Part shown: piece after piece, positions 59 to 42,576 of the stretch
Numbering within the stretch: the stretch's first letter is position 1
How the letters are laid out: the number at the start of each line of letters is the position of its first letter
Translations under genes and position numbers: made by a program
The notes under the pieces: generated by a model
What the model saw: only the letters and a program-made list of their open reading frames with translations
Database searches by the model: none
Told to the model about the DNA's origin: nothing
Virus record (IMG/VR): IMGVR_UViG_3300016665_000124
Length of the DNA: 42,576 bases
Direction: 5' to 3' (one strand)
Source: a virus

Positions 59-384
59 CTGACTTTCGTGCGCTTTGCGCTGAGCTGCTAGACGAGTTTG
101 TGTATCACACAGACTGGTCCGACGCAAAGGAACTGAAAGATCGCGCCCGCGCTGCCCTATATGAGTCCTGCGCCAGTGACTATAAAGTGGCAAGTGAAGA
201 TACAATGCGCCGTATCCGTTCAACAACAAAACGTTGGAGAGTAAGTGTAATCATCAGCACTAACGACAGCTCAATTGACACCCGGATTGGTTGCGGGATC
301 TGGAAATGCTTGGATATTGAACGTGAAATCCTTGAAAGCGTTTCCTTGCCCGAATATCTTGCAATTAAGGAGAACGCACAATGA
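55..384 (+). CDS. Hypothetical protein, member of the MT(T)DFRALCAEL N-terminal module family
   Basis: 109-aa ORF with ATGA overlaps at both ends. The N-terminus MTDFRALCAELL is shared with the ORFs at 381 and 41541, and it has the DRARAAL motif shared with the 381 ORF. Confidence 0.6.
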   Translation: MTDFRALCAELLDEFVYHTDWSDAKELKDRARAALYESCASDYKVASEDTMRRIRSTTKRWRVSVIISTNDSSIDTRIGCGIWKCLDIEREILESVSLPEYLAIKENAQ

Positions 385-415
385 CCACTGACTTCCGTGC
401 GCTTTGCGCTGAGCT
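369..415 (+). repeat. 47-nt direct repeat (1 mismatch) with partner at 41529-41575
   Basis: ggagaacgcacaATGACCAC(T/C)GACTTCCGTGCGCTTTGCGCTGAGCT spans a stop/start gene junction in both copies. A shorter third copy of 21 nt lies at 67-87. Confidence 0.9.
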
Positions 416-17489: not shown

Positions 17490-18019
17490 CTACCGCCGGC
17501 GTGCCTTGTCTAGTTCTTTTTTCTCGCGTTCGCCTTTCACTTCATAGTAAGCAGCAAAATGAACGAACTCGGCATCAGTCAGTTCGGTGCGAAGCCGACT
17601 GACTGTCATGCCAAGCTCAGTCGCAAGGAAGAACTCGAAGAATAGCCACGAGTCTCCCTCTAGTCTTTTTTTGCTTCTTCCAGGCTGGCATCACCACCAA
17701 GACCGAACAGGAATAGCTCCAGTTCGTTCAGCACACGCTCCGGTAGTTCGCGTTGCAGCTTGGCTGCATCGGCAGCTGCAAATGCCTTGGTGCCATCCTC
17801 AAGTTCAGCAATCTGGCACAGCATTTGCGTGCTGATCTCTAGGGCTTCATCTGAACCAGCCAAGGTCGTGGCTTTTTTGCGATCAGATCTAGTGATCGGC
17901 TTGAAATACAAGTCCATCACCGGATCGCCGGCATCGTTCTTGATGGTGAACTTACGGCGCTGGTTGAGATCAAAAGCGCCCGTGAGCAAGTCAACAGGGC
18001 GCGTGGATGCAGCAGGCAT
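17490..18019 (-). CDS. Tail assembly chaperone GT fusion made by -1 programmed ribosomal frameshift
   Basis: The -1 frame after A_AAA_AAA (17672-17666) is open for 58 codons (RLEGDSWLFFEFFLATELGMTVSRLRTELTDAEFVHFAAYYEVKGEREKKELDKARRR) to a TAG at 17492-17490. I checked every triplet by hand. Confidence 0.7.
17660..18019 (-). CDS. Tail assembly chaperone (gpG-like)
   Basis: 119-aa acidic ORF between the tube and tape measure genes. It ends ...GAA GCA AAA AAA GAC TAG and so contains an A7 slippery run. Confidence 0.75.
   Translation of the reverse strand: MPAASTRPVDLLTGAFDLNQRRKFTIKNDAGDPVMDLYFKPITRSDRKKATTLAGSDEALEISTQMLCQIAELEDGTKAFAAADAAKLQRELPERVLNELELFLFGLGGDASLEEAKKD
17666..17672 (-). 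promoter_or_regulatory. Slippery heptamer A_AAA_AAA for the G/GT -1 frameshift
   Basis: Seven consecutive T on the plus strand, in the X_XXY_YYZ register relative to the G frame. Confidence 0.7.
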
Positions 18020-18438
18020 TAAATGCTCAGGGTAAGGGTTCCGCTAGATACAAAATTGATGGTTACAATTTCGATCTCTCCAACGGTAGCACTGTATTCA
18101 GTGCTGGTAACCACAATGGTTCCTGTGATTTTTTTGCCGCCGGTTTCGTCCAGGTAAAGCTCAACCGATGCGTCGGCTTCGTCGGTGACCTGGTTGACAT
18201 CCTTGATCAGGTCCAGCTTGTCGCCGGCGCCTGGAGCGTCGTACATGACCTCAATGGTGCCTGATCCGCTGATCAGTCCACCGATGTTGGCGCGATAGGT
18301 GGCGCCATGCACGGTGGCGTCATAGGACTCCTTCTCGACGGTCATCGACCAGGATCGCACAGCAGCGATTTCGGATAGGCCACCGCTGCCAGCCTTATCA
18401 AAGAAGACCGTGCCTTGTTGCCCGCGATAAAAAGCCAT
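18019..18438 (-). CDS. Major tail tube protein, paralog B
   Basis: 139 aa. MAFYRGQQGTVFFDKAG...RSWSMTVEKES...GATYRAN.GGLISGSGT...EYSATVGEIE..TINFV is colinear with the adjacent paralog. Confidence 0.65.
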   Translation of the reverse strand: MAFYRGQQGTVFFDKAGSGGLSEIAAVRSWSMTVEKESYDATVHGATYRANIGGLISGSGTIEVMYDAPGAGDKLDLIKDVNQVTDEADASVELYLDETGGKKITGTIVVTSTEYSATVGEIEIVTINFVSSGTLTLSI

Positions 18439-18440
18439 GA

Positions 18441-18857
18441 TCAGATGTCGAGAGAGATTGCGCCGTTAGCCACGAAGTTGATGGTGATCACTTCGATTTC
18501 ACCCACAGTAGCTGAATACTCAGCAGAGGTGATGACACCATCAAAGGTGATTTTTTTGGTGCCGCTGGTGTCAAGATACAGCTCAAACAGGGCTGCACCT
18601 TCATCATTGGCAGTATTGATCATCTCGATGAATGCATTGGTTTCATCGCTGGTGGTGGCGGTGTACATCAGCTCACAGGTGCCGCTGCCGCTGATCAAGC
18701 CGCCAACATTGGCTCGGTAGGTGGCGCCTAATGCCGTAGTGTCCAGCGATTCCTTTTCGACAGTCATCGACCAGGAACGTGTGCTGGCGATAGCAGCTGC
18801 AGTGGTGCCGGCGTCGTCAAATTTGACGCTGCCTTGCTGCCCTCGATAGAAAGCCAT
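18441..18857 (-). CDS. Major tail tube protein, paralog A
   Basis: 138 aa, well over half identical by eye to the 18019-18438 product. Located between the tail terminator-like gene and the G chaperone. Confidence 0.65.
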   Translation of the reverse strand: MAFYRGQQGSVKFDDAGTTAAAIASTRSWSMTVEKESLDTTALGATYRANVGGLISGSGTCELMYTATTSDETNAFIEMINTANDEGAALFELYLDTSGTKKITFDGVITSAEYSATVGEIEVITINFVANGAISLDI

Positions 18858-36575: not shown

Positions 36576-36734
36576 ACACCCCTTGCACGGTGCCGGCTCC
36601 ATAGGGCACACTGAAGGGACGAGGGAGACGCCATGCCACCTCGCTAAATCCGGCAGACCGCGGGAACAGCTACACGACCGCGTTACCCAGACGAAGCCGA
36701 GGGGGTGCAAGGCCCCCAACCAACCCACCTCCCT

Positions 36735-36917
36735 ATGACACCCGACGAAATCAACGCCACCTTGATGACCGCTTGTCGGTTTGGCGGTGGCTTTATTGCA
36801 CGGCTCGCTGAGGCTGGCCTGCACGCTGATCCGAACAATCGGCAGCGTCTTCTGATTGCTTTCCCTGAGTTAATTGATGACTACGGCCCAACCACAACCT
36901 TCTATCTCAAACGCTGA
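36735..36917 (+). CDS. Hypothetical protein
   Basis: ATGAC start (MTPDEINATLMTACRFGGGFIARLAEAGLHADPNNRQRLLIAFPEL...). The track ORF starts earlier on a GTG. Confidence 0.5.
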   Translation: MTPDEINATLMTACRFGGGFIARLAEAGLHADPNNRQRLLIAFPELIDDYGPTTTFYLKR

Positions 36918-37695
36918 TTATCACGCTGATCCAGCAGTCAGCGCATCTCATCTCAAGGCCATCAGCATCAGCCCATTGCACTACTGGGCGCGATACGTCG
37001 ATCCAGATCGCATCACGCCAGAGCCGACGCCTGCCATGCGCTTGGGCAGCATGGTCCATTGCACCGTGCTGGAGCCGCATGAGCTGCCGCATCGGTACCT
37101 GCGTGTGCCTGATGGCATCGACCGTCGCACCAAGGACGGCAAGGCCGCATGGGCTGAGCTAGAGGCCAGCGGCAAGGAGCTGATCAAGGCCGCCGACTGG
37201 GATATGGCCATGGCCATGGCTGAAGCCTGCTGGCGGCATCCTGCAGCGGGCAAACTGCTGCGGCAGCCAGATGGCCTAGCCGAGCTGTCGTTCTGGTGGT
37301 CTGATGGTGATCTGCGCTGCAAGTGCCGACCAGACCTGCTGGCTAGTGATGTGATCGTTGATCTCAAGACGACCACCGATGCCAGCCCTGCAGCTTTCGC
37401 TCGTGCTGTGGTCGGCTTCGGCTACCACCTGCAGGCTGCTCATTACCTCGCCGGCACTGGCGCTGCACGGTTTGTCTTCCTTGCTGTCGAGAAGGCGCCG
37501 CCCTATGCGGTGGCTGTCTATGAGTTGGATGCAGCAGCACTTGCCACTGGCGAGCAGCTGCGGCAAGAGGCCATGCACATAATCCGCCAATGCCGCCAGG
37601 CTGACCACTGGCCTGGCTACAGCGATGACTGCCAAACCCTCAGCCTGCCTAAGTGGGCAGTGCCAACTGACTTGATTACTCCTGACCAATTCTGA
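36874..37695 (+). CDS. PD-(D/E)XK exonuclease (RecE / exonuclease VIII C-terminal-like)
   Basis: ISNADYHADPAVSASHLKAISISPLHYW, CRPDLL...VIVDLKTT and YHLQAAHY motifs, with a RecT-like gene immediately downstream. Confidence 0.75.
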   Translation: MMTTAQPQPSISNADYHADPAVSASHLKAISISPLHYWARYVDPDRITPEPTPAMRLGSMVHCTVLEPHELPHRYLRVPDGIDRRTKDGKAAWAELEASGKELIKAADWDMAMAMAEACWRHPAAGKLLRQPDGLAELSFWWSDGDLRCKCRPDLLASDVIVDLKTTTDASPAAFARAVVGFGYHLQAAHYLAGTGAARFVFLAVEKAPPYAVAVYELDAAALATGEQLRQEAMHIIRQCRQADHWPGYSDDCQTLSLPKWAVPTDLITPDQF

Positions 37696-38453
37696 TGACC
37701 TCAGCACTTGCGCTCTGGACGCCAGAGCAAACCCAACTGATCAGCAGCACCATTGCACCGGGCTGCAGCAATGACGAGCTGCGGCTATTTGCCTACGCGT
37801 GCCAACGCACCGGGCTGGATCCGTTCAGCAAGCAAATCTACGCCATCAAACGTGGCGGCAAGATGACCATCCAGGCCGGCATCGACGGCCTTCGCAGCAT
37901 CGCTGAACGCACAGGCCAGCTTGATGGCTCTGAAACGTACTGGTGCGGGGAGGATGGCGTCTGGGCTGACGTATGGCTCGGCAGCAAGCCACCCGCCGCG
38001 GCCAAAACCATCATCCACCGTAAAGGCAGTAGCCATCCGTTCGTCGGCGTGGCCCGGTTTGCGGACTACAACGCCGGCCAGGGCCTCTGGTCCAAGATGC
38101 CGGCGGCCATGATCGCCAAGTGCTCCGAAAGCCTGGCACTGCGCAAGGCTTTCCCTGCTGATCTCAGCGGTGTCTACAGCACAGATGAGATGCAGCAGGC
38201 TGAGGTGGAGCCGGTGACGGTTACCGCTGAGCCTGCACCTGCACTCACAGGCCCCAGCAAGACGTTTGTCGCTGGTCAAGGTGCGGTCGCCAAGATCAAG
38301 ACCATGGATGACCTGGCCCGCGTGCAATCGCGCCTGCAGGCTCGCGTGGATTCTGGTGACCTAACGACCACCGAGCACGAAGAGCTGCAGATCCTGCTGC
38401 TCAACAAAGAAGCCGACCTGATCAAGGCTGATTCCGATCCCTTCGAAGACTGA
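37695..38453 (+). CDS. recT: RecT/Bet-family single-strand annealing protein
   Basis: LDPFSKQIYAIKRGGKMTIQAGIDGLRSIAERTGQ and KCSESLALRKAFPADLSGVYSTDEM blocks. Confidence 0.8.
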   Translation: MTSALALWTPEQTQLISSTIAPGCSNDELRLFAYACQRTGLDPFSKQIYAIKRGGKMTIQAGIDGLRSIAERTGQLDGSETYWCGEDGVWADVWLGSKPPAAAKTIIHRKGSSHPFVGVARFADYNAGQGLWSKMPAAMIAKCSESLALRKAFPADLSGVYSTDEMQQAEVEPVTVTAEPAPALTGPSKTFVAGQGAVAKIKTMDDLARVQSRLQARVDSGDLTTTEHEELQILLLNKEADLIKADSDPFED

Positions 38454-38456
38454 TTC

Positions 38457-38810
38457 ATGTCTCTTTATGCAACCGGCGTAGTTCGCATCATCAGCGACCT
38501 ACAGATGAAAACCTTCGATAGCGGCGCCATGGTCTGCAACTTTGCAGCCGGCATCCAAGAAGGCAAAGACAAAAATGGCGACTACATCAATAACGTGATT
38601 GATGTAGAGGTTTGGAACAAAGCCGCTGAGGTGATCTACGGCAAACTGAAGAAAGGAGACTGCCTTCTGCTTAGCGGCAACATCCGTCGCCAGGACTGGA
38701 TCGATAAAGAAACTGGCAAGAAGCGATCAAAGCATCTGCTGTCCGCTAGCCGGTTTGAGTTCCTGCCGCGTGCAGCTGGCGAAACCTCGTCACCCATGGA
38801 TGACTTCTAG
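38457..38810 (+). CDS. ssb: Single-stranded DNA-binding protein
   Basis: 117 aa, OB-fold-like pattern (VEVWNKAAEVIYGKLKKGDCLLLSGNIRRQDW), and an acidic C-terminal tip PMDDF. Confidence 0.75.
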   Translation: MSLYATGVVRIISDLQMKTFDSGAMVCNFAAGIQEGKDKNGDYINNVIDVEVWNKAAEVIYGKLKKGDCLLLSGNIRRQDWIDKETGKKRSKHLLSASRFEFLPRAAGETSSPMDDF

Positions 38811-38910
38811 AGGTCCATCAGCAACAGCTCAAGCCGCGCGATCTCATTAATCGCAGCTTGAATCATCTCCTGCTGTCGGTACGTTTGCCGTAGCAGGATT
38901 GCTGCAGCCT

Positions 38911-38943
38911 TGCCGGCATTAGGGTCCTTCTCTAATGCCGGCA
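38911..38943. promoter_or_regulatory. Perfect 12-bp inverted repeat TGCCGGCATTAG-(9 nt)-CTAATGCCGGCA
   Basis: Seen directly, about 100 nt downstream of ssb, followed by TTCTTCC. May be a terminator-like hairpin or a protein-binding site. Confidence 0.6.
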
Positions 38944-39039
38944 TTCTTCCTCAATCTTGAACAACCGTTCTGGTGGAATGTCAACCATCAACCAATCGCC
39001 CATTTTCATTGCGTTATCGCAAGTCATCTCAGTCTGCCT

Positions 39040-39288
39040 ATGGAATGCCCAAGCTGCCAGAACCGATGGATCAAGGTTGTAGAAACCAATACCCGCGAAC
39101 GCGATTACATCGCCCGCAAACGCCAGTGTGCCGCCTGCGATCACACCTGGTTCACCGTGGAGCAGATCGTCAGCCCTGACTCAATCACCTGGCGCAGGGC
39201 CGGCGGCACTGGCGGAAGGCCAGTGTTACGAAAAACAACAGCACCGCCCGACGTGCCCGAGATACCTGGCACCATTGAGCACAGCTGA
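39040..39288 (+). CDS. Four-cysteine zinc-ribbon protein, paralog of the 1435/1498 ORF
   Basis: MECPSCQNRWIKVVETNTRERDYIARKRQCAACDHTWFTVEQ. The track ORF starts at 38935, but that N-terminal extension looks non-coding. Confidence 0.6.
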   Translation: MECPSCQNRWIKVVETNTRERDYIARKRQCAACDHTWFTVEQIVSPDSITWRRAGGTGGRPVLRKTTAPPDVPEIPGTIEHS

Positions 39289-39322
39289 GCAGGACCGCTC
39301 AGCGCCACACCACACCCCAACC

Positions 39323-39559
39323 ATGGAACTACTTACTTCTGACTGGGCACCACACATCGAGAAGGCCGTGCGCGCCATCGCTGCTGTGGTCGTCGCCGTC
39401 TATGTCGCCGGGCTCATTACCGGCACCTTCGTCCACTGGGTCAATGACTGCATCGCAGGAAAACAAGAGTGGGCAGTGCCCACCCTTGTGATCAGCCCTA
39501 CACCCGCTTCCGCAATCCAGAAGCCCCTCAAGGCTAAGGCCCGAGGATTCAAGTCATGA
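39323..39559 (+). CDS. 78-aa single-pass membrane protein
   Basis: The internal ATG gives MELLTSDW...AIAAVVVAVYVAGLITGTFV..., with a basic C-terminus and ATGA coupling downstream. Confidence 0.5.
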   Translation: MELLTSDWAPHIEKAVRAIAAVVVAVYVAGLITGTFVHWVNDCIAGKQEWAVPTLVISPTPASAIQKPLKAKARGFKS

Positions 39560-39657
39560 GGATCATCGGCTTCCTGCTGCCAGTGCTGCTTGTCGCTGGC
39601 CTCGTGGTCCACAGTGCAGACCGCTGCATTCCAACCCATCAAAACGCCTGCCGATGA
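39556..39657 (+). CDS. 33-aa membrane or signal-like micro-protein
   Basis: Hand-translated MRIIGFLLPVLLVAGLVVHSADRCIPTHQNACR, with ATGA overlaps at both ends. Confidence 0.4.
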   Translation: MRIIGFLLPVLLVAGLVVHSADRCIPTHQNACR

Positions 39658-39968
39658 AACGCCTACTTCTTGCCTTGCTCCTGCTTGCTGCACCTGCCAG
39701 CGCTAGGCCTGTTACCGCCACCGTCTATGACGGCTGGTATCACGGCCGTGTTGCCTACTGCGGCGGCACCTATCGCCACTGGGGAATCAGCGCGGCTCAT
39801 CCATGGCTGCCATGCGGCACCAGGGTTCGCGTGAGCCATCGCGGTAGGTCGCTCACTGTGCCGATCACAGACCGCTGCGACTGCTCATCCATTGACCTAT
39901 CCGCTGGTGCGGCCTATCGCCTTGGCGTGCCGCTTGACGGCATTGCTCGCGTATGGATCTCGTATTGA
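39654..39968 (+). CDS. Secreted RlpA-like double-psi beta-barrel (DPBB) protein
   Basis: Signal peptide MKRLLLALLLLAAPASA, then ATVYDGWYHGR..YCGG....ISAAHPWLPCGTRVRVSHRGRSLTVPITDRC....IDLSAGAAYRLG matches the RlpA/DPBB pattern. Confidence 0.65.
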   Translation: MKRLLLALLLLAAPASARPVTATVYDGWYHGRVAYCGGTYRHWGISAAHPWLPCGTRVRVSHRGRSLTVPITDRCDCSSIDLSAGAAYRLGVPLDGIARVWISY

Positions 39969-39971
39969 GCC

Positions 39972-40145: not shown

Positions 40146-40318
40146 AGATCCGCATTGCCATTGCCACCAACCCGCAAGGCGGGGAATGGGTGGCCTATCG
40201 CACCTGGAACGAAAGCCCATGCCGTGCTGCCCAGGCCGCCCTAGAAACCCTGCAGGAGACCGTCGCTGATCCTGAGTGCGCTGCACCGGTGCTGCGATGG
40301 GTGGAGGTGGAGGTATGA
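40142..40318 (+). CDS. 58-aa hypothetical protein
   Basis: ATG inside track ORF 40133..40318 (MKIRIAIATNPQGGEWVAYRTW...), with ATGA overlaps at both ends. Confidence 0.45.
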   Translation: MKIRIAIATNPQGGEWVAYRTWNESPCRAAQAALETLQETVADPECAAPVLRWVEVEV

Positions 40319-40695
40319 ACCATCCCATCACCCCTCCGCCGGAGTTGGTGGAAGAATGGATTGCCCAGGTCTGGCATGAAGGCACCCCTGTGCGAGTGGG
40401 TGCCAGTGACATTCACATCGCCACCCAGGCCGCTCGCTGGGGGGCTGACCAGGAGCTGGAGGCGTGCTGTGAGTGGCTCGTAAAAGAAGGCTGGTTCCGA
40501 TACGAACACGAAGCAGTGCAAGAACTCCGCGCCGCCCGCCGCCCCAAGCCACCGAGCTTGGCAGAGCAAGGGCTAGCAGCACTTGATCGTCTTAGTAGCG
40601 GATCACTATCACTATGCACCAATCCCGTCACTGATACGCACACCATCCGCGCCGCCCTTGAGCGGCTGCAAGAGCTGGAACAAAGCAATGACTAA
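40315..40695 (+). CDS. Hypothetical protein carrying the shared C-terminal module AARRPKPPSLAE...IRAALERLQELEQ
   Basis: GGAGGTGGAGGT lies upstream of the ATG. The C-terminal ~45 aa parallels the 41541 ORF and includes a 36-nt identical DNA block. Confidence 0.6.
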   Translation: MNHPITPPPELVEEWIAQVWHEGTPVRVGASDIHIATQAARWGADQELEACCEWLVKEGWFRYEHEAVQELRAARRPKPPSLAEQGLAALDRLSSGSLSLCTNPVTDTHTIRAALERLQELEQSND

Positions 40696-40867
40696 AGAGT
40701 CAGGAAAGACTTTCTTTTGGGCACCAAAGACAAAGGTCATTTGCCAAAAGCACGGTACCCACACCCACACGATCCAAAGCACTATCCAAGGACATGAGGG
40801 CTACTGGTGCATGATCTGTGCACTGGAAAAGCTCGGAGAACCACTACCAACAACCAATGATGACTGA
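40688..40867 (+). CDS. 59-aa putative zinc-binding protein
   Basis: MTKESGKTFFWAPKTKVICQKHGTHTHTIQSTIQGHEGYWCMICALEKLG has a C..H...C..C pattern. Confidence 0.4.
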   Translation: MTKESGKTFFWAPKTKVICQKHGTHTHTIQSTIQGHEGYWCMICALEKLGEPLPTTNDD

Positions 40868-41045
40868 CTTCTACATCGACTCAGACACTGGCCGCATTGG
40901 TCAGTTCTGGTGGGTCAACTCCAACAACGTTGACCGCCTATGGATGGGCGACATATCCCCTTGGGTCATGAAGTGGTGCATCCGCTGGGGCACCTTTGGC
41001 TTTGGCCGCAAGGTTCGCATTTACATGGAGCCTATTAATGACTGA
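40857..41045 (+). CDS. Trp-rich hypothetical protein (MMTDF start)
   Basis: 62 aa from the internal ATG of the track ORF. It overlaps the upstream stop. Confidence 0.4.
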   Translation: MMTDFYIDSDTGRIGQFWWVNSNNVDRLWMGDISPWVMKWCIRWGTFGFGRKVRIYMEPIND

Positions 41046-41115
41046 TTTCCAATCAACACTTCTATTTGCAGTTGCTTGTTTAATTATCACAGCCTGGTTT
41101 TTTAAGCATGACTAA
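41038..41115 (+). CDS. 25-aa hydrophobic micro-ORF (MTDF start)
   Basis: Hand-translated MTDFQSTLLFAVACLIITAWFFKHD, with 8-nt overlaps at both ends. Confidence 0.3.
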   Translation: MTDFQSTLLFAVACLIITAWFFKHD

Positions 41116-41335
41116 CGCCAGCCGTGAACTGCTTTCACAAATTATCGCTGCCTTCGGTGGCGTTGCGATTGTTGTCATTATCGCAATCACTTTCACAATG
41201 ACTTCCAAAGATTACTCTCGAACAACCACAATCCAAAAACTCTATAAGGTGAATTTGGAATGCCGCCAAACTGCAAGTGCAGTAGGACGTAACGCTGATA
41301 ATGTTTGTGGACCCGTTCCGAGAAATTTTCAATGA
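41108..41335 (+). CDS. 75-aa membrane protein
   Basis: TM segment IIAAFGGVAIVVIIAITFTM, ATGA-coupled downstream. Confidence 0.5.
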   Translation: MTNASRELLSQIIAAFGGVAIVVIIAITFTMTSKDYSRTTTIQKLYKVNLECRQTASAVGRNADNVCGPVPRNFQ

Positions 41336-41544
41336 CTGAACTTTCGTCCCAAGCCCAGGCAGTGTTGGACGCCGCATATGAAGAAATTGATTATGTCCCA
41401 CAAAGACATGTTCGCTGGGCTGCCGCCGCCGCCCTGCGTGCTGCTGCACGCCAACTGCGTGAGGCGTACGTCAATGAAACATACGTCGAGCCTGCTGATG
41501 ACTGGCTTGATTCCATCGCCGACGAACTGGAGAACGCACAATGA
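41332..41544 (+). CDS. Hypothetical protein, paralog of the 1124 ORF
   Basis: MTELSSQAQAVLDAAYEE...WAAAAALRAAARQLRE, ending ...ELENAQ like the 55 ORF (...KENAQ). Confidence 0.55.
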   Translation: MTELSSQAQAVLDAAYEEIDYVPQRHVRWAAAAALRAAARQLREAYVNETYVEPADDWLDSIADELENAQ

Positions 41545-41575
41545 CCACCGACTTCCGTGCGCTTTGCGCTGAGCT
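41529..41575 (+). repeat. 47-nt direct repeat partner of 369-415
   Basis: One mismatch (41549 C versus 389 T). Spans the ENAQ-stop / MTTDFRALCAEL-start junction. Confidence 0.9.
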
Positions 41576-41978
41576 GGCAGACGAGTTGACTCAATTCAAT
41601 GCTTGGTACATCGAAGACAACGGCTACGGCTTGCCAGCCCTTGAGGCACTGCTGCGCCGCAGCGACGCCGCCTTAGCACAGTCAGATGAACTGGCTGTGC
41701 CCGAGGGCAGGGAACCAGCTAAGACGGAGCTACGGCAAGTCTTTGATGACCACTCTGGTTACATCAATGACGAGCAGGTGATGTGGTGGGGCGACTTTCA
41801 CGCAGCCGCCCGCCGCCCCAAGCCACCGAGCTTGGCAGAGGAGGCGCTGAAAGCACTGCAGGATCAAATCGACACATCTTTCAAAATATCTTCCGAAGCG
41901 CAAGAACGTGCTAACACCATACGCGCCGCCCTTGAGAGGCTGAAGGAGCTGGAGCAGCTTTCCGACGATCAAGGCTGA
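41541..41978 (+). CDS. Chimeric family member with the MTTDFRALCAEL N-module and the AARRPKPPSLAE...ERLKELEQ C-module
   Basis: 145 aa. It combines the N-terminal module of the 55 and 381 ORFs with the C-terminal module of the 40315 ORF. Confidence 0.65.
   Translation: MTTDFRALCAELADELTQFNAWYIEDNGYGLPALEALLRRSDAALAQSDELAVPEGREPAKTELRQVFDDHSGYINDEQVMWWGDFHAAARRPKPPSLAEEALKALQDQIDTSFKISSEAQERANTIRAALERLKELEQLSDDQG
41814..41849 (+). repeat. 36-nt perfect direct repeat, partner at 40531-40566
   Basis: gccgcccgccgccccaagccaccgagcttggcagag is identical in both ORFs. Confidence 0.9.
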
Positions 41979-42016: not shown

Positions 42017-42334
42017 ATGGAAACCTCTGTCACTCAAATCCAGATCAACGGAGTTGATTATGTTCGCGCTGATTCCGTTCTTGGCACCAATCCCAATGGC
42101 AATCGCGCTGTTGTGGTGGTCGATCGCGGCTGGATCTTTGCCGGTGATGTTACCCGCGAAAATGGTCGTATTCGCTTGAGCCGTGCGCTGCATGTGTTCA
42201 AATGGGATTCCATTGGCTTTGCCAAGATGGTTGAAACGGCAAATGCGGATCTGCGGCCTATTGCTGATGTGGATCTTCCGGAAGGCGCTGAGATTTTCTG
42301 CGTGCCGGTGTCTGATAATTGGGGGCTCAAGTGA
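42017..42334 (+). CDS. Hypothetical protein
   Basis: 105-aa ORF (…RAVVVVDRGWIFAGDVTRENGRIRLSRALHVFKW…). Its stop overlaps the next ATG (TGATG). Confidence 0.55.
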   Translation: METSVTQIQINGVDYVRADSVLGTNPNGNRAVVVVDRGWIFAGDVTRENGRIRLSRALHVFKWDSIGFAKMVETANADLRPIADVDLPEGAEIFCVPVSDNWGLK

Positions 42335-42576
42335 TGACTGAATTGATGCGCCCTGTTAGCTACGGCGACGGCTTCGGCGACGGCAACGGCGACGGCTTCG
42401 GCGACGGTTACGGCTACGGCTACGGCTACGGCTACGGTTACGGCTACGGCTACGGCTACGGCTACGGCTACGGCTACGGCTACGGCTACGGCGACGGTTA
42501 CGGTTACGGAAACGGCGACGGAAACGGCTACGGCTACGGCTACGGCTACGGCTTCGGCTTCGGCTGCGGCGACGGC
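42334..42576 (+). CDS. (X-Gly)36 Tyr/Gly-rich repeat protein, 5' part (continues at nt 23-58 after the junction; about 92 aa in total)
   Basis: MTELMRPVS followed by 36 strictly alternating X-G dipeptides (X = 21 Y, 7 D, 4 F, 3 N, 1 C), then NCSPHRNRRAK after the junction. Confidence 0.55.
   Translation, partial: MTELMRPVSYGDGFGDGNGDGFGDGYGYGYGYGYGYGYGYGYGYGYGYGYGYGDGYGYGNGDGNGYGYGYGYGFGFGCGDG
42409..42492 (+). repeat. Hexanucleotide microsatellite (TACGGY)14
   Basis: 14 consecutive TACGGC/TACGGT units. Related GAC/TTC/AAC-GGC units extend the periodicity from 42361 to the window end. Confidence 0.95.

Follow-up and report, generated by a model that had tools for sequence, protein, structure and literature searches.

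Cassette-type gene conversion, in which minicassettes with conserved flanking frames are exchanged, underlies antigenic variation in the Neisseria pilE/pilS system. Among phages, mosaicism by recombination at short homologies is already known: RecT and Rad52-like recombinases join diverged DNA via short homologies, and intragenic exchanges of ~100 bp are frequent (De Paepe et al. 2014, PMC3945230). The accessory regions of phages also form hotspots of highly variable, often anti-defense genes between conserved genes (bioRxiv 10.1101/2023.04.06.535777), and the internal proteins of T-even phages are a diverse defense-countering set sharing only a capsid targeting sequence (PMC3012670). Here we consider a locus that bears likenesses to each of these systems, namely, an array of small genes in a 42,576-nt stretch of viral DNA (IMG/VR record IMGVR_UViG_3300016665_000124), the whole of which we call the window. 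A first-pass annotation of this stretch had described six of its accessory open reading frames (ORFs) as a mosaic family of small proteins built from shuffled N- and C-terminal modules. All six exist as described, on the plus strand, and are labeled A (55-384), B (381-1127), C (1124-1402), D (40315-40695), E (41332-41544), and F (41541-41978). That they are paralogs built from shuffled modules is strongly supported, and the mosaic is richer than the one first described. We favor, as probable if well short of certain, the view that they belong to a recombination-shuffled accessory repertoire whose helical modules reassort at short conserved frames.

The DFRALCAEL-type N-terminus that had been noticed in A, B, and F is indeed common to the three, with composition-corrected BLASTP E-values of 7e-6 (A/F), 1e-4 (A/B), and 1e-4 (B/F), and a profile of this N-terminal hairpin matches the window at 55-165 (1e-13), 381-518 (5e-17), and 41541-41684 (2e-27). 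D and F likewise share the C-terminal module ascribed to them (54 aa, 56% identity, BLASTP E 1.3e-14). The AAALRAAA-Q core reported for C and E is genuine and extends beyond the Ala run: BLASTP gave no match between the two ORFs, and hhalign, comparing a 48-sequence profile of the C family with ORF E, gave a probability of 96.2% (E 2.5e-9) over E residues 1-43. The shared unit comprises MTxLSxxAQAVLDA, a variable stretch, and AAALRAAAxQ, beyond which the second halves of C and E differ. A (D/E)RARAAL motif had further been placed once in A and twice in B; the copy in A is there (DRARAAL, residue 29), but only one of those in B is exact (ERARAAL, residue 185), the other, at residue 38 in its first hairpin, being an imperfect DRARTAM. 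Given these significant BLASTP and profile scores, the similarity is not confined to low-complexity runs of Ala, Arg, and Leu, an explanation that the first-pass annotation had itself raised.

In terms of architecture, A (109 aa) consists of the N-terminal hairpin (55-165), followed by a body weakly like the "PETMRDEF...GIFRV" module of its relatives, and ends in ENAQ*. B (248 aa) joins the N-terminal hairpin (381-518) to a body with the ARxxLxxWG motif, a second, partial hairpin (894-962) with the ERARAAL motif, and a Cys-rich tail. C (92 aa) is a full member of the C family, with LSPAAxAV..., a variable stretch, AAALRAAADQVVP, and a conserved second half ending in AIAAELEG. E (70 aa) has the C-family N half (MTELSxxAQAVLDA...AAALRAAA; hidden Markov model [HMM] match at 41332-41457), fused to a different short tail that ends in ENAQ*. 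D (126 aa), the prototype of what we call the D type, combines an N domain (HPITPPPELV...AARWGADQELEACCEW) with an RRPKPPSLAE linker and a C-terminal hairpin, the module HMMs placing the N domain at 40315-40506 and the C-terminal module at 40525-40692. F (145 aa) comprises the N-terminal hairpin (41541-41684), a "ELRQVFDDHSGYINDEQVMWWGDFHAAAR" body (~41715-41813), and the RPKPPSLAE linker with the C-terminal hairpin (41805-41966). F had been taken for a chimera of two modules; it is a chimera, but one of three parts, since the "ELRQVFDDHSGYINDEQVMWWGDFHAAAR" segment runs on into ...AARAVLARWG in its relatives (P0011, P0022, P0025, P0030, and P0034) and in F is joined to the RPKPPSLAE... C module of the D type. 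The junction lies in Ala-Ala-Arg codons, exactly at the start of a 36-nt block shared with D, placing the crossover in these codons. The C family shows a length-variable, hypervariable stretch of ~13-30 residues (1166-1222 in ORF C) between the near-invariant frames LSPAAQAVLDA and AAALRAAADQVVP, and the same design, with conserved frames around a variable cassette, is seen in the D, hairpin, and C families. ORF 1395-1589 (MSKDLRAALTDLIHDLE...), hairpin-like by eye, was considered as a seventh, diverged member of the hairpin family and set aside on an hhalign probability of 2%.

Five module profiles capture this vocabulary: Dn (the D N-domain), Ct (the C-terminal hairpin), Nh (the N-terminal hairpin), and CfN and CfC (the two halves of the C family). 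When compared with each other by hhalign, they gave probabilities of <=12%, none significant, and therefore represent distinct modules; a common origin of all modules, suspected from "ARAxLARWG"-like strings, was rejected on the same profile-profile comparisons. Every ORF of 118 fetched loci was scanned with the five profiles, and unique architectures were counted. Dn-Ct accounts for 105 of these, CfN alone (the E type) for 85, Nh with unclassified tails for 47, CfN-CfC (the C type) for 39, Nh-ARWG for 28, Dn alone for 25, Nh with a Cys/Trp-rich tail for 17 (9 with the tail directly after Nh and 8 after ARWG), and Nh-Ct (the F type) for 9, with the rare fusions Nh-CfN-CfC, Nh-CfN, and CfN-Nh-ARWG found once each. 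Longer relatives display tandem Dn-Ct-Dn-Ct and Dn-Ct-Ct arrangements, and a Dn-like unit occurs within one long hairpin protein. A 408-aa hairpin relative (P0416) has the Pfam domain WDGH (PF25311, E 2.1e-26) between its hairpin/ARWG modules and a Cys/Trp-rich tail; this is the sole curated domain found fused to these modules, and a literature search on WDGH gave nothing.

The modules also co-localize. Among the 79 loci fetched with the hairpin, CfN is present in 66, Dn in 57, and all three in 51, figures that carry an ascertainment bias in that the loci were fetched by the modules themselves; the C family was not used in the retrieval of viral contigs. In 113 of the 118 loci, the modules share a strand. 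Their span is 1.6 kb at the median, and a single locus can have as many as 12 module genes.

The families are very large. With F as the query, we recovered 109 proteins (67 of the D type, 36 with the hairpin and other tails, and five F-like chimeras including F itself), and C as the query recovered 1523 homologs at E<=0.01. A profile of the D type gave at least 8000 matches at E<=0.001 (all scored candidates passed), and that of the hairpin family gave 3977 clusters at 50% identity, with E-values below 1e-10 for 1974. None of the matches listed carried a precomputed Pfam domain or an informative name. In a tblastn search of 50,697 GenBank phage records, D-type genes were found only in S-CBS2 (a siphovirus), S-H1, and S-RIP1 (T7-like), all of them Synechococcus phages, and C and F had no match in the same records; by HMM comparison, the gene 3' of S-CBS2 gp065 matches the N half of the C family. 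The C-family profile detected 5 loci in 185,579 species genomes, all on contigs of <=29 kb from metagenome-assembled genomes (MAGs) that carry other modules too. These five are most likely binned phage contigs, and the presence of the C family in cellular genomes, for which they would be the only evidence, was not accepted.

The families are found on contigs of 4 to 150 kb, among them T7-like genomes, in one of which a D-type gene precedes that for RNA polymerase and in another a C-type gene follows it. D- and C-type genes were noted in T7-like podovirus genomes of ~42.5-45 kb at three loci (L119, L120, and L123, the last being S-RIP1), with the D-type gene just upstream of the RNA polymerase gene in L119 and 3' of the primase/helicase gene in S-RIP1. 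Since both types occur in T7-like podoviruses, the repertoire crosses the morphotypes of Synechococcus phages.

Within the D family, the two halves of the protein assort independently: the identities of N and C halves are uncorrelated (r = 0.105), and in 99 of 112 pairs with C halves >=85% identical the N halves are <=50% identical. The converse is illustrated by P0010 and P0082, which are 95% identical before the RRPKPPSLAEQ linker and 42% identical after it. D itself matches the D-type gene of contig L124 at 96.8% (122/126 nt) over its variable cassette and 3' frame (TIRAALERLQELE; 40567-40692) and at 63.6% before the linker, L124 (sample ERZ27292648) being the contig of an unrelated phage that encodes a family A DNA polymerase (PolA). 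The cassette of F is 92.9% identical after the linker to the D-type gene of a sister contig (L011), the flanking genes of which are 95.6% identical to the window over 36720-39970; hence, the D-type gene of a near sister holds the cassette that is borne here by a hairpin protein. Within the window, D and F are 100% identical in the 36-nt linker and 56.3% identical after it. Among 111 unique D-type genes, we found 18 long tracts of 91-214 nt with 92-99% identity in pairs that are otherwise 46-61% identical; an end of the tract falls in residues 71-88, the LRAARRPKPPSLAEQAL frame (RRPKPPSLAE), in 16 of the 18, and the others end in the WGADQELEACCEW frame or at the ends of the genes. The D family thus displays what a recombination-generated mosaic would show, namely, high-identity tracts in diverged genes that end in conserved islands.

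Two further segments are shared with a 71.9-kb viral contig (L014). Nucleotides 874-965 of B, in the region of its second hairpin, are 93.5% identical to L014 4849-4940, the start of a hairpin gene there, and a 75-aa ORF at 41108-41335, membrane-spanning by eye, has 86.7% DNA identity to L014 4059-4268. These represent further cassette sharing with a much larger phage.

Could the array have arisen by ordinary tandem duplication and divergence in this genome, with the shared stretches kept by purifying selection and no exchange of modules? The genes are adjacent, co-directional, and coupled by ATGA overlaps, their conserved motifs coincide with predicted helices, and the codons of the linker vary like those of other conserved columns, all of which such a history would predict. 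It would not predict that the cassette of F is closer to a gene of another genome than to that of its own paralog D, that the cassette of D is nearly identical to a gene of an unrelated phage, or that the N and C halves are uncorrelated across the D family. The same modules are, moreover, found in different orders and fusions, the DNA identity between the paralogs drops sharply from 46/47 or 36/36 to background, and the pairwise data already indicate incongruent histories for the segments. We therefore regard duplication without exchange as improbable.

At the DNA level, the perfect 36-nt repeat that had been reported between D and F is confirmed, with its first copy at 40531-40566 (plus strand; encoding AARRPKPPSLAE) and its second at 41805-41840 (plus strand; the chimera junction of F), 9 nt away from the 41814-41849 originally assigned to it; 20 shuffles gave no exact repeat longer than 13-16 nt. 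A second D/F block (40640-40682 versus 41914-41956) is 88% identical. The gene-junction frame at E/F (41529-41575, plus strand) comprises the ENAQ* end of E, a GGAG ribosome-binding site, the ATGA overlap, and MTTDFRALCAEL of F, and is identical in 46 of 47 nt to its counterpart at A/B (369-415, plus strand); this 47-nt block starts 12 nt 5' of the ATG and so also encodes the ENAQ* of the upstream genes A and E. Beyond both the 46/47 and the 36/36 blocks, identity falls to background within a few bases. Likeness of the junction block recurs among the paralogs of other loci, with >=48/51 nt in 11.8% of same-locus versus 1.2% of different-locus pairs (17 pairs). These blocks are most readily understood as side effects of biased codon usage in a conserved peptide, and their length happens to suffice for recombination. 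In this genome, the perfect 36-nt identity most likely marks the endpoint of a recent conversion or crossover, and the gene-junction block may additionally serve in translational coupling.

If the repeat blocks were instead nucleic-acid elements in their own right, such as a ribosome-binding or coupling signal, a promoter/terminator cassette, an RNA structure, or a mobile mini-element, the likeness of the proteins would be secondary. The recurrence at junctions elsewhere of a 47-nt block holding a GGAG and an ATGA overlap would suit such an idea, as would the presence of 37/38 nt of the linker block in S-CBS2. Against it, the linker shows ordinary synonymous variation, and random family pairs agree on average in 27.6/36 nt, with 36/36 in only 2 of the 776 diverged pairs. 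When viral contigs were scanned for exact DNA copies, there were 0 matches to the 36-mer and 2 to a 26-mer of the N-terminal block, on which grounds we rejected the blocks as widespread exact DNA repeats. Rfam and tRNA scans gave no match, promoter-like and terminator-like sites showed no enrichment above background, and conservation at the protein level reaches well past the blocks. We accordingly consider a primary role of the blocks as nucleic acid very unlikely.

Taking these observations together, we propose that the six ORFs are probably one phage's sample of a huge unannotated repertoire of small, acidic, all-helical "beads-on-a-string" proteins, a repertoire that belongs to Synechococcus-type cyanophages, siphoviruses and T7-like podoviruses alike. 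It draws on at least five modules, namely, the D N-domain, the RRPKPPSLAE...IRAALERLxELE hairpin, the DFRALCAEL...RARAAL hairpin, and the two halves of the LSPAAQAVLDA...AAALRAAADQVVP...AIAAELE family, supplemented by further tails such as ARAVLARWG and the Cys/Trp-rich type. In each module, conserved frame helices or Pro-rich linkers surround a hypervariable cassette, and, because the frames are conserved and the codon usage is biased, near-identical DNA islands of 27-50 nt arise in otherwise diverged genes, some of them spanning the stop/start junctions between genes. Homologous recombination would then cross over within these islands, both between co-infecting phages and between paralogs, plausibly by means of annealing recombinases of the phages, for example the RecT and exonuclease whose genes lie immediately 5' of the array. 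Cassettes and whole modules thus reassort independently of the remaining gene. ORF F is probably a product of such an exchange, as is the swap of a C-terminal cassette between this genome and its sister. Homology, modularity, co-localization, independent assortment, and tract ends in the frames are observed directly; we infer that RecT-type enzymes perform the exchanges and that the array genes are expressed with the replication/recombination (DNA-metabolism) operon; the proteins might bind host or rival-phage targets in an arms race.

Several points weigh against this reading, besides the ascertainment bias in the co-occurrence figures. Same-locus paralog pairs elsewhere agree in only 17-32/36 nt at the linker, from which it follows that the perfect 36-nt identity seen here is a single event and not the rule. 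In a codon alignment of 41 D-type genes, the codons of RRPKPPSLAE vary synonymously like other conserved columns; together with the 27.6/36 mean and the paralog values, this led us to reject the idea that the 36-nt linker is, in general, an element under selection as DNA. The frames may thus be conserved purely for protein reasons, with the crossovers there a by-product. Some of the carriers are T7-like phages without RecT, a point qualified by the Gp2.5-like annealing protein annotated in S-RIP1. Finally, searches of the window ORFs and their relatives against Pfam, NCBIfam, PADLOC, PDB sequences and folds, and BFVD gave no match beyond uncharacterized homologs.

A more far-reaching version, to which we give only limited credence, is that the co-localized D, C/E, and hairpin families constitute one functional system. 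Their products would form hetero-oligomers via the frames, with the hypervariable cassettes displayed as surfaces for binding; the frames, and with them the stop/start junctions, would double as recombination anchors, and the cassettes would belong to a population-wide pool shared by siphoviruses and podoviruses. If true, this would make the system a viral counterpart of cassette-based antigenic or immune-repertoire variation, directed against host defenses or competing phages.

As regards the genome, nucleotides 1-22 of the window are identical to 42555-42576 in a comparison of repeats, and the source record is a 42,695-bp MEGAHIT k141 contig (ENA ERZ27292652) on which the six array ORFs are contiguous. 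The genome is circular or terminally redundant, with a length of ~42,554 bp, and in the window the circle is written out as a line; given the identical ends and the contiguity on the source contig, the six ORFs form a single array across the junction. Its order is D, two or three small ORFs, E, F, a 105-aa ORF, a repeat ORF, A, B, and C, all on the plus strand, with ATGA stop/start overlaps joining most of them. Upstream on the same strand are genes for an HNH endonuclease, a helicase, a VRR-NUC nuclease, a PDDEXK exonuclease (36874-37695; Pfam DUF3799, E 1.9e-34), RecT (37695-38453; Pfam RecT, E 3.3e-33), SSB, an NrdR-like zinc ribbon, and a DPBB-fold protein; downstream are a second NrdR-like zinc ribbon, a winged-helix protein, and DUF3310. 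The structural genes are on the minus strand at 2.7-33.5 kb. The head genes have ~74% DNA identity to cyanophage KBS-S-2A and another segment has ~75% to Synechococcus phage S-H1; the genome is that of a Synechococcus-type phage. Across the other loci, SSB and a PDDEXK exonuclease recur upstream of the modules and dCTP deaminase, ThyX, DUF3310, and an HNH endonuclease recur downstream, with zinc-ribbon regulators and sigma factors also nearby, and in S-CBS2, S-H1, and S-RIP1 the genes are likewise set among those for DNA metabolism.

The two NrdR-like zinc-ribbon proteins that bracket the array (38935-39288 and 1435-1761; Pfam PF22811, E 4.8e-9 and 2.2e-10) are paralogs, 41% identical over 54 aa, and zinc ribbons of the PF22811 type occurred near or within the arrays of other loci in the neighbor census (18 loci). 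The ORF at 1435-1761, with its significant Pfam match, is overlapped in other frames by two genes called on the source contig (1395-1589 and 1589-1906); as the frames in 1395-1906 conflict, one or both sets of calls or start sites must be in error. A terminator-like hairpin (38911-38943) with a 14-bp stem, 8 G-C pairs, and a weak T tract separates the SSB gene from the ORF that follows. An ORF running from 42334-42576 on into 1-58 encodes mostly Gly-Tyr, Gly-Asp, and Gly-Phe dipeptide repeats (MTELMRPVSYGDGFGDG...GYGYGY...GCGDGNCSPHRNRRAK), with TRF reporting 36 copies of a 6-nt unit at 42359-42576; its stop at 56-58 overlaps the ATG of A, it is translationally coupled to ORFs 42017 and 55, and together with ORF 42017 it has 76% DNA identity to part of a viral contig (L018). 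In the structural arm, a 122-nt direct repeat of 72% identity (18236-18357 and 18658-18779) falls in adjacent minus-strand ORFs of ~138 aa (18019-18438 and 18441-18857), which suggests a tandem gene duplication.

The location of the array bears on another explanation, that the proteins are packaged in the virion and injected, the conserved N-terminus being a capsid-targeting signal with diverse cargo as in the internal-protein locus of T4. A conserved N-terminus ahead of very diverse bodies is what this would produce, and the T-even internal proteins offer a precedent. The conserved unit here, however, is a helical hairpin of ~45 residues and not a short peptide, and it is also found internally (residues 172-194 of B and residues 45-97 of P0029). 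The array, for its part, lies in the plus-strand replication/recombination block between SSB and the regulators, tens of kilobases from the minus-strand head genes, and placement away from head genes holds in S-CBS2, S-H1, and S-RIP1 as well; we think a packaged role very improbable. That the resemblances are an artifact, either a low-complexity coincidence of Ala, Arg, and Leu or errors of metagenome assembly at short repeats, is scarcely credible in spite of the Ala-rich sequences (9-23% Ala), the lack of a BLASTP match between C and E, and the metagenomic origin of the window, because composition-corrected BLASTP and profile scores are significant, the repeats (<=53 nt) are shorter than the k of 141 implied by the k141 name, 9 distinct sequences drawn from different data sets have the F-type architecture, and D-type genes are present in three cultured Synechococcus phages. 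We accordingly rate all four of these alternatives, duplication, nucleic-acid elements, packaged proteins, and artifact, as low.

The helical structure anticipated by the first-pass annotation is borne out by the AF2 models, in which D consists of five helices (pLDDT 80, pTM 0.52) and F of six (pLDDT 78, pTM 0.39), with both hairpins of F at ~90 or above and the linkers low; confident hairpins, low linkers, and a low pTM, by which the placement of the parts relative to one another is uncertain, together fit independent beads. Foldseek searches of the PDB with these two models gave best E-values of 3.3 and 4.0, nothing significant, and searches of BFVD retrieved only uncharacterized viral proteins, the best being F4YCP6 (101 aa, 41% identity), which is probably the S-CBS2 gp065 homolog. 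The functional scans, which also included PHROGs, covered the window ORFs and their relatives, among them the ten longest proteins of the hairpin family. In keeping with the earlier statement that these proteins have no recognizable function, the annotation libraries returned only uncharacterized homologs (PHROG 32006), apart from the WDGH insertion in one relative.

All the families are acidic, with median isoelectric points (pI) of 4.4-4.9, and acidity (pI 4.2-5.6) is the sole likeness to DNA mimics. An anti-restriction or anti-defense identity of the ArdA, Ocr, or KlcA kind was considered and set aside, since neither P0061, named "antirestriction protein" by JGI, nor the window ORFs have a match in Pfam, NCBIfam, or PADLOC; no support was found for the JGI names of relatives in general ("3-methyladenine DNA glycosylase," "CobN," and "antirestriction protein"). 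DUF551 (Pfam PF04448), considered for the "ERLP...C...THWLP" tails of some relatives, was dropped after P0018, P0020, P0051, P0077, and the window ORFs showed no Pfam match at E<=1; none of the six window ORFs carries this tail. A host-takeover or anti-defense role, as first suggested, is plausible on the basis of context: the proteins are small and acidic, the array is variable and lies in a replication/recombination operon, and on one T7-like contig the position is 5' of the gene for RNA polymerase.

Phages of marine Synechococcus influence a large part of primary production in the ocean, and most of their small early or accessory genes are unexplained. Six orphan ORFs are now tied to three very large, co-localized, unannotated families, for which PHROG 32006, with no function attached, is the sole library family matched. 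The reassortment described above is a concrete route of diversification, in which sub-genic cassettes are swapped at short conserved frames, even across morphotypes, and could serve as a natural system for gauging the minimum length of homology that phage recombinases exploit in nature. The families provide a defined and abundant set of targets for functional screens, and, if the proteins prove to be counter-defense factors, the module vocabulary would aid in annotating thousands of metagenomic genes together.

With respect to the described systems, the closest relative is PHROG 32006, together with S-CBS2 gp065 (YP_004421519). ORF D is a full-length member of this family, with residues 2-104 aligning with positions 5-104 of the 116 in phrog_32006 (E 3.2e-28), and gp065 shares with D the HPxTPPPELV, WGADQELEACCEW, and LRAARRPKPPSL motifs along with the linker DNA; its gene comes 3' of rpoD, ssb, and endonuclease VII and immediately before the gene with the C-family N half. 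F, in contrast, has only the C-terminal third of the profile (residues 85-133 on positions 69-111, E 6.1e-5), fused to unrelated modules, and is not a full-length member. The C-terminal hairpin of gp065 is shorter than that of D.

The mosaicism of lambdoid and other temperate phages (PMC3945230) resembles the present case in that a RecT/exonuclease pair adjoins the array and in that tracts of ~90-210 nt, bounded by high-identity islands, occur in genes that are 46-61% identical. It differs in that the units here are sub-genic, 30-60 codons within very small genes, and belong to a defined vocabulary, whereas there they are genes or gene blocks; the carriers here also include T7-like podovirus contigs, and the recombinase would have a presumed role. 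As in phage accessory regions generally, a variable array of small genes occupies a recurrent site, with exonuclease/SSB upstream and dCTP deaminase/ThyX/DUF3310 downstream, and its content differs between genomes with 95.6% identical flanks; in those regions, however, whole unrelated genes are usually swapped, whereas here a small set of families turns up repeatedly, with most of the variation inside the genes. The T4-type internal proteins have in common with the hairpin family a conserved N-terminal unit on very diverse bodies, several paralogs per genome, and presumably an arms-race repertoire. They differ from it in their location with the head and prohead genes, in contrast to the plus-strand replication/recombination block of the array, and in that the hairpin of 45 residues is here also internal and the C-terminal and internal modules are shuffled too.

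Lastly, the array shares with Neisseria pilE/pilS hypervariable cassettes bracketed by conserved frames that would serve as recombination anchors, with donors in the same genome and in the population. It has neither silent donor loci nor signs of programmed or high-frequency switching, the exchange taking place between virus genomes. In relation to the known mosaicism by recombination at short homologies, what is new here is the sub-genic scale of the exchange, the sharing of a module vocabulary across morphotypes, and the size of the unannotated families.

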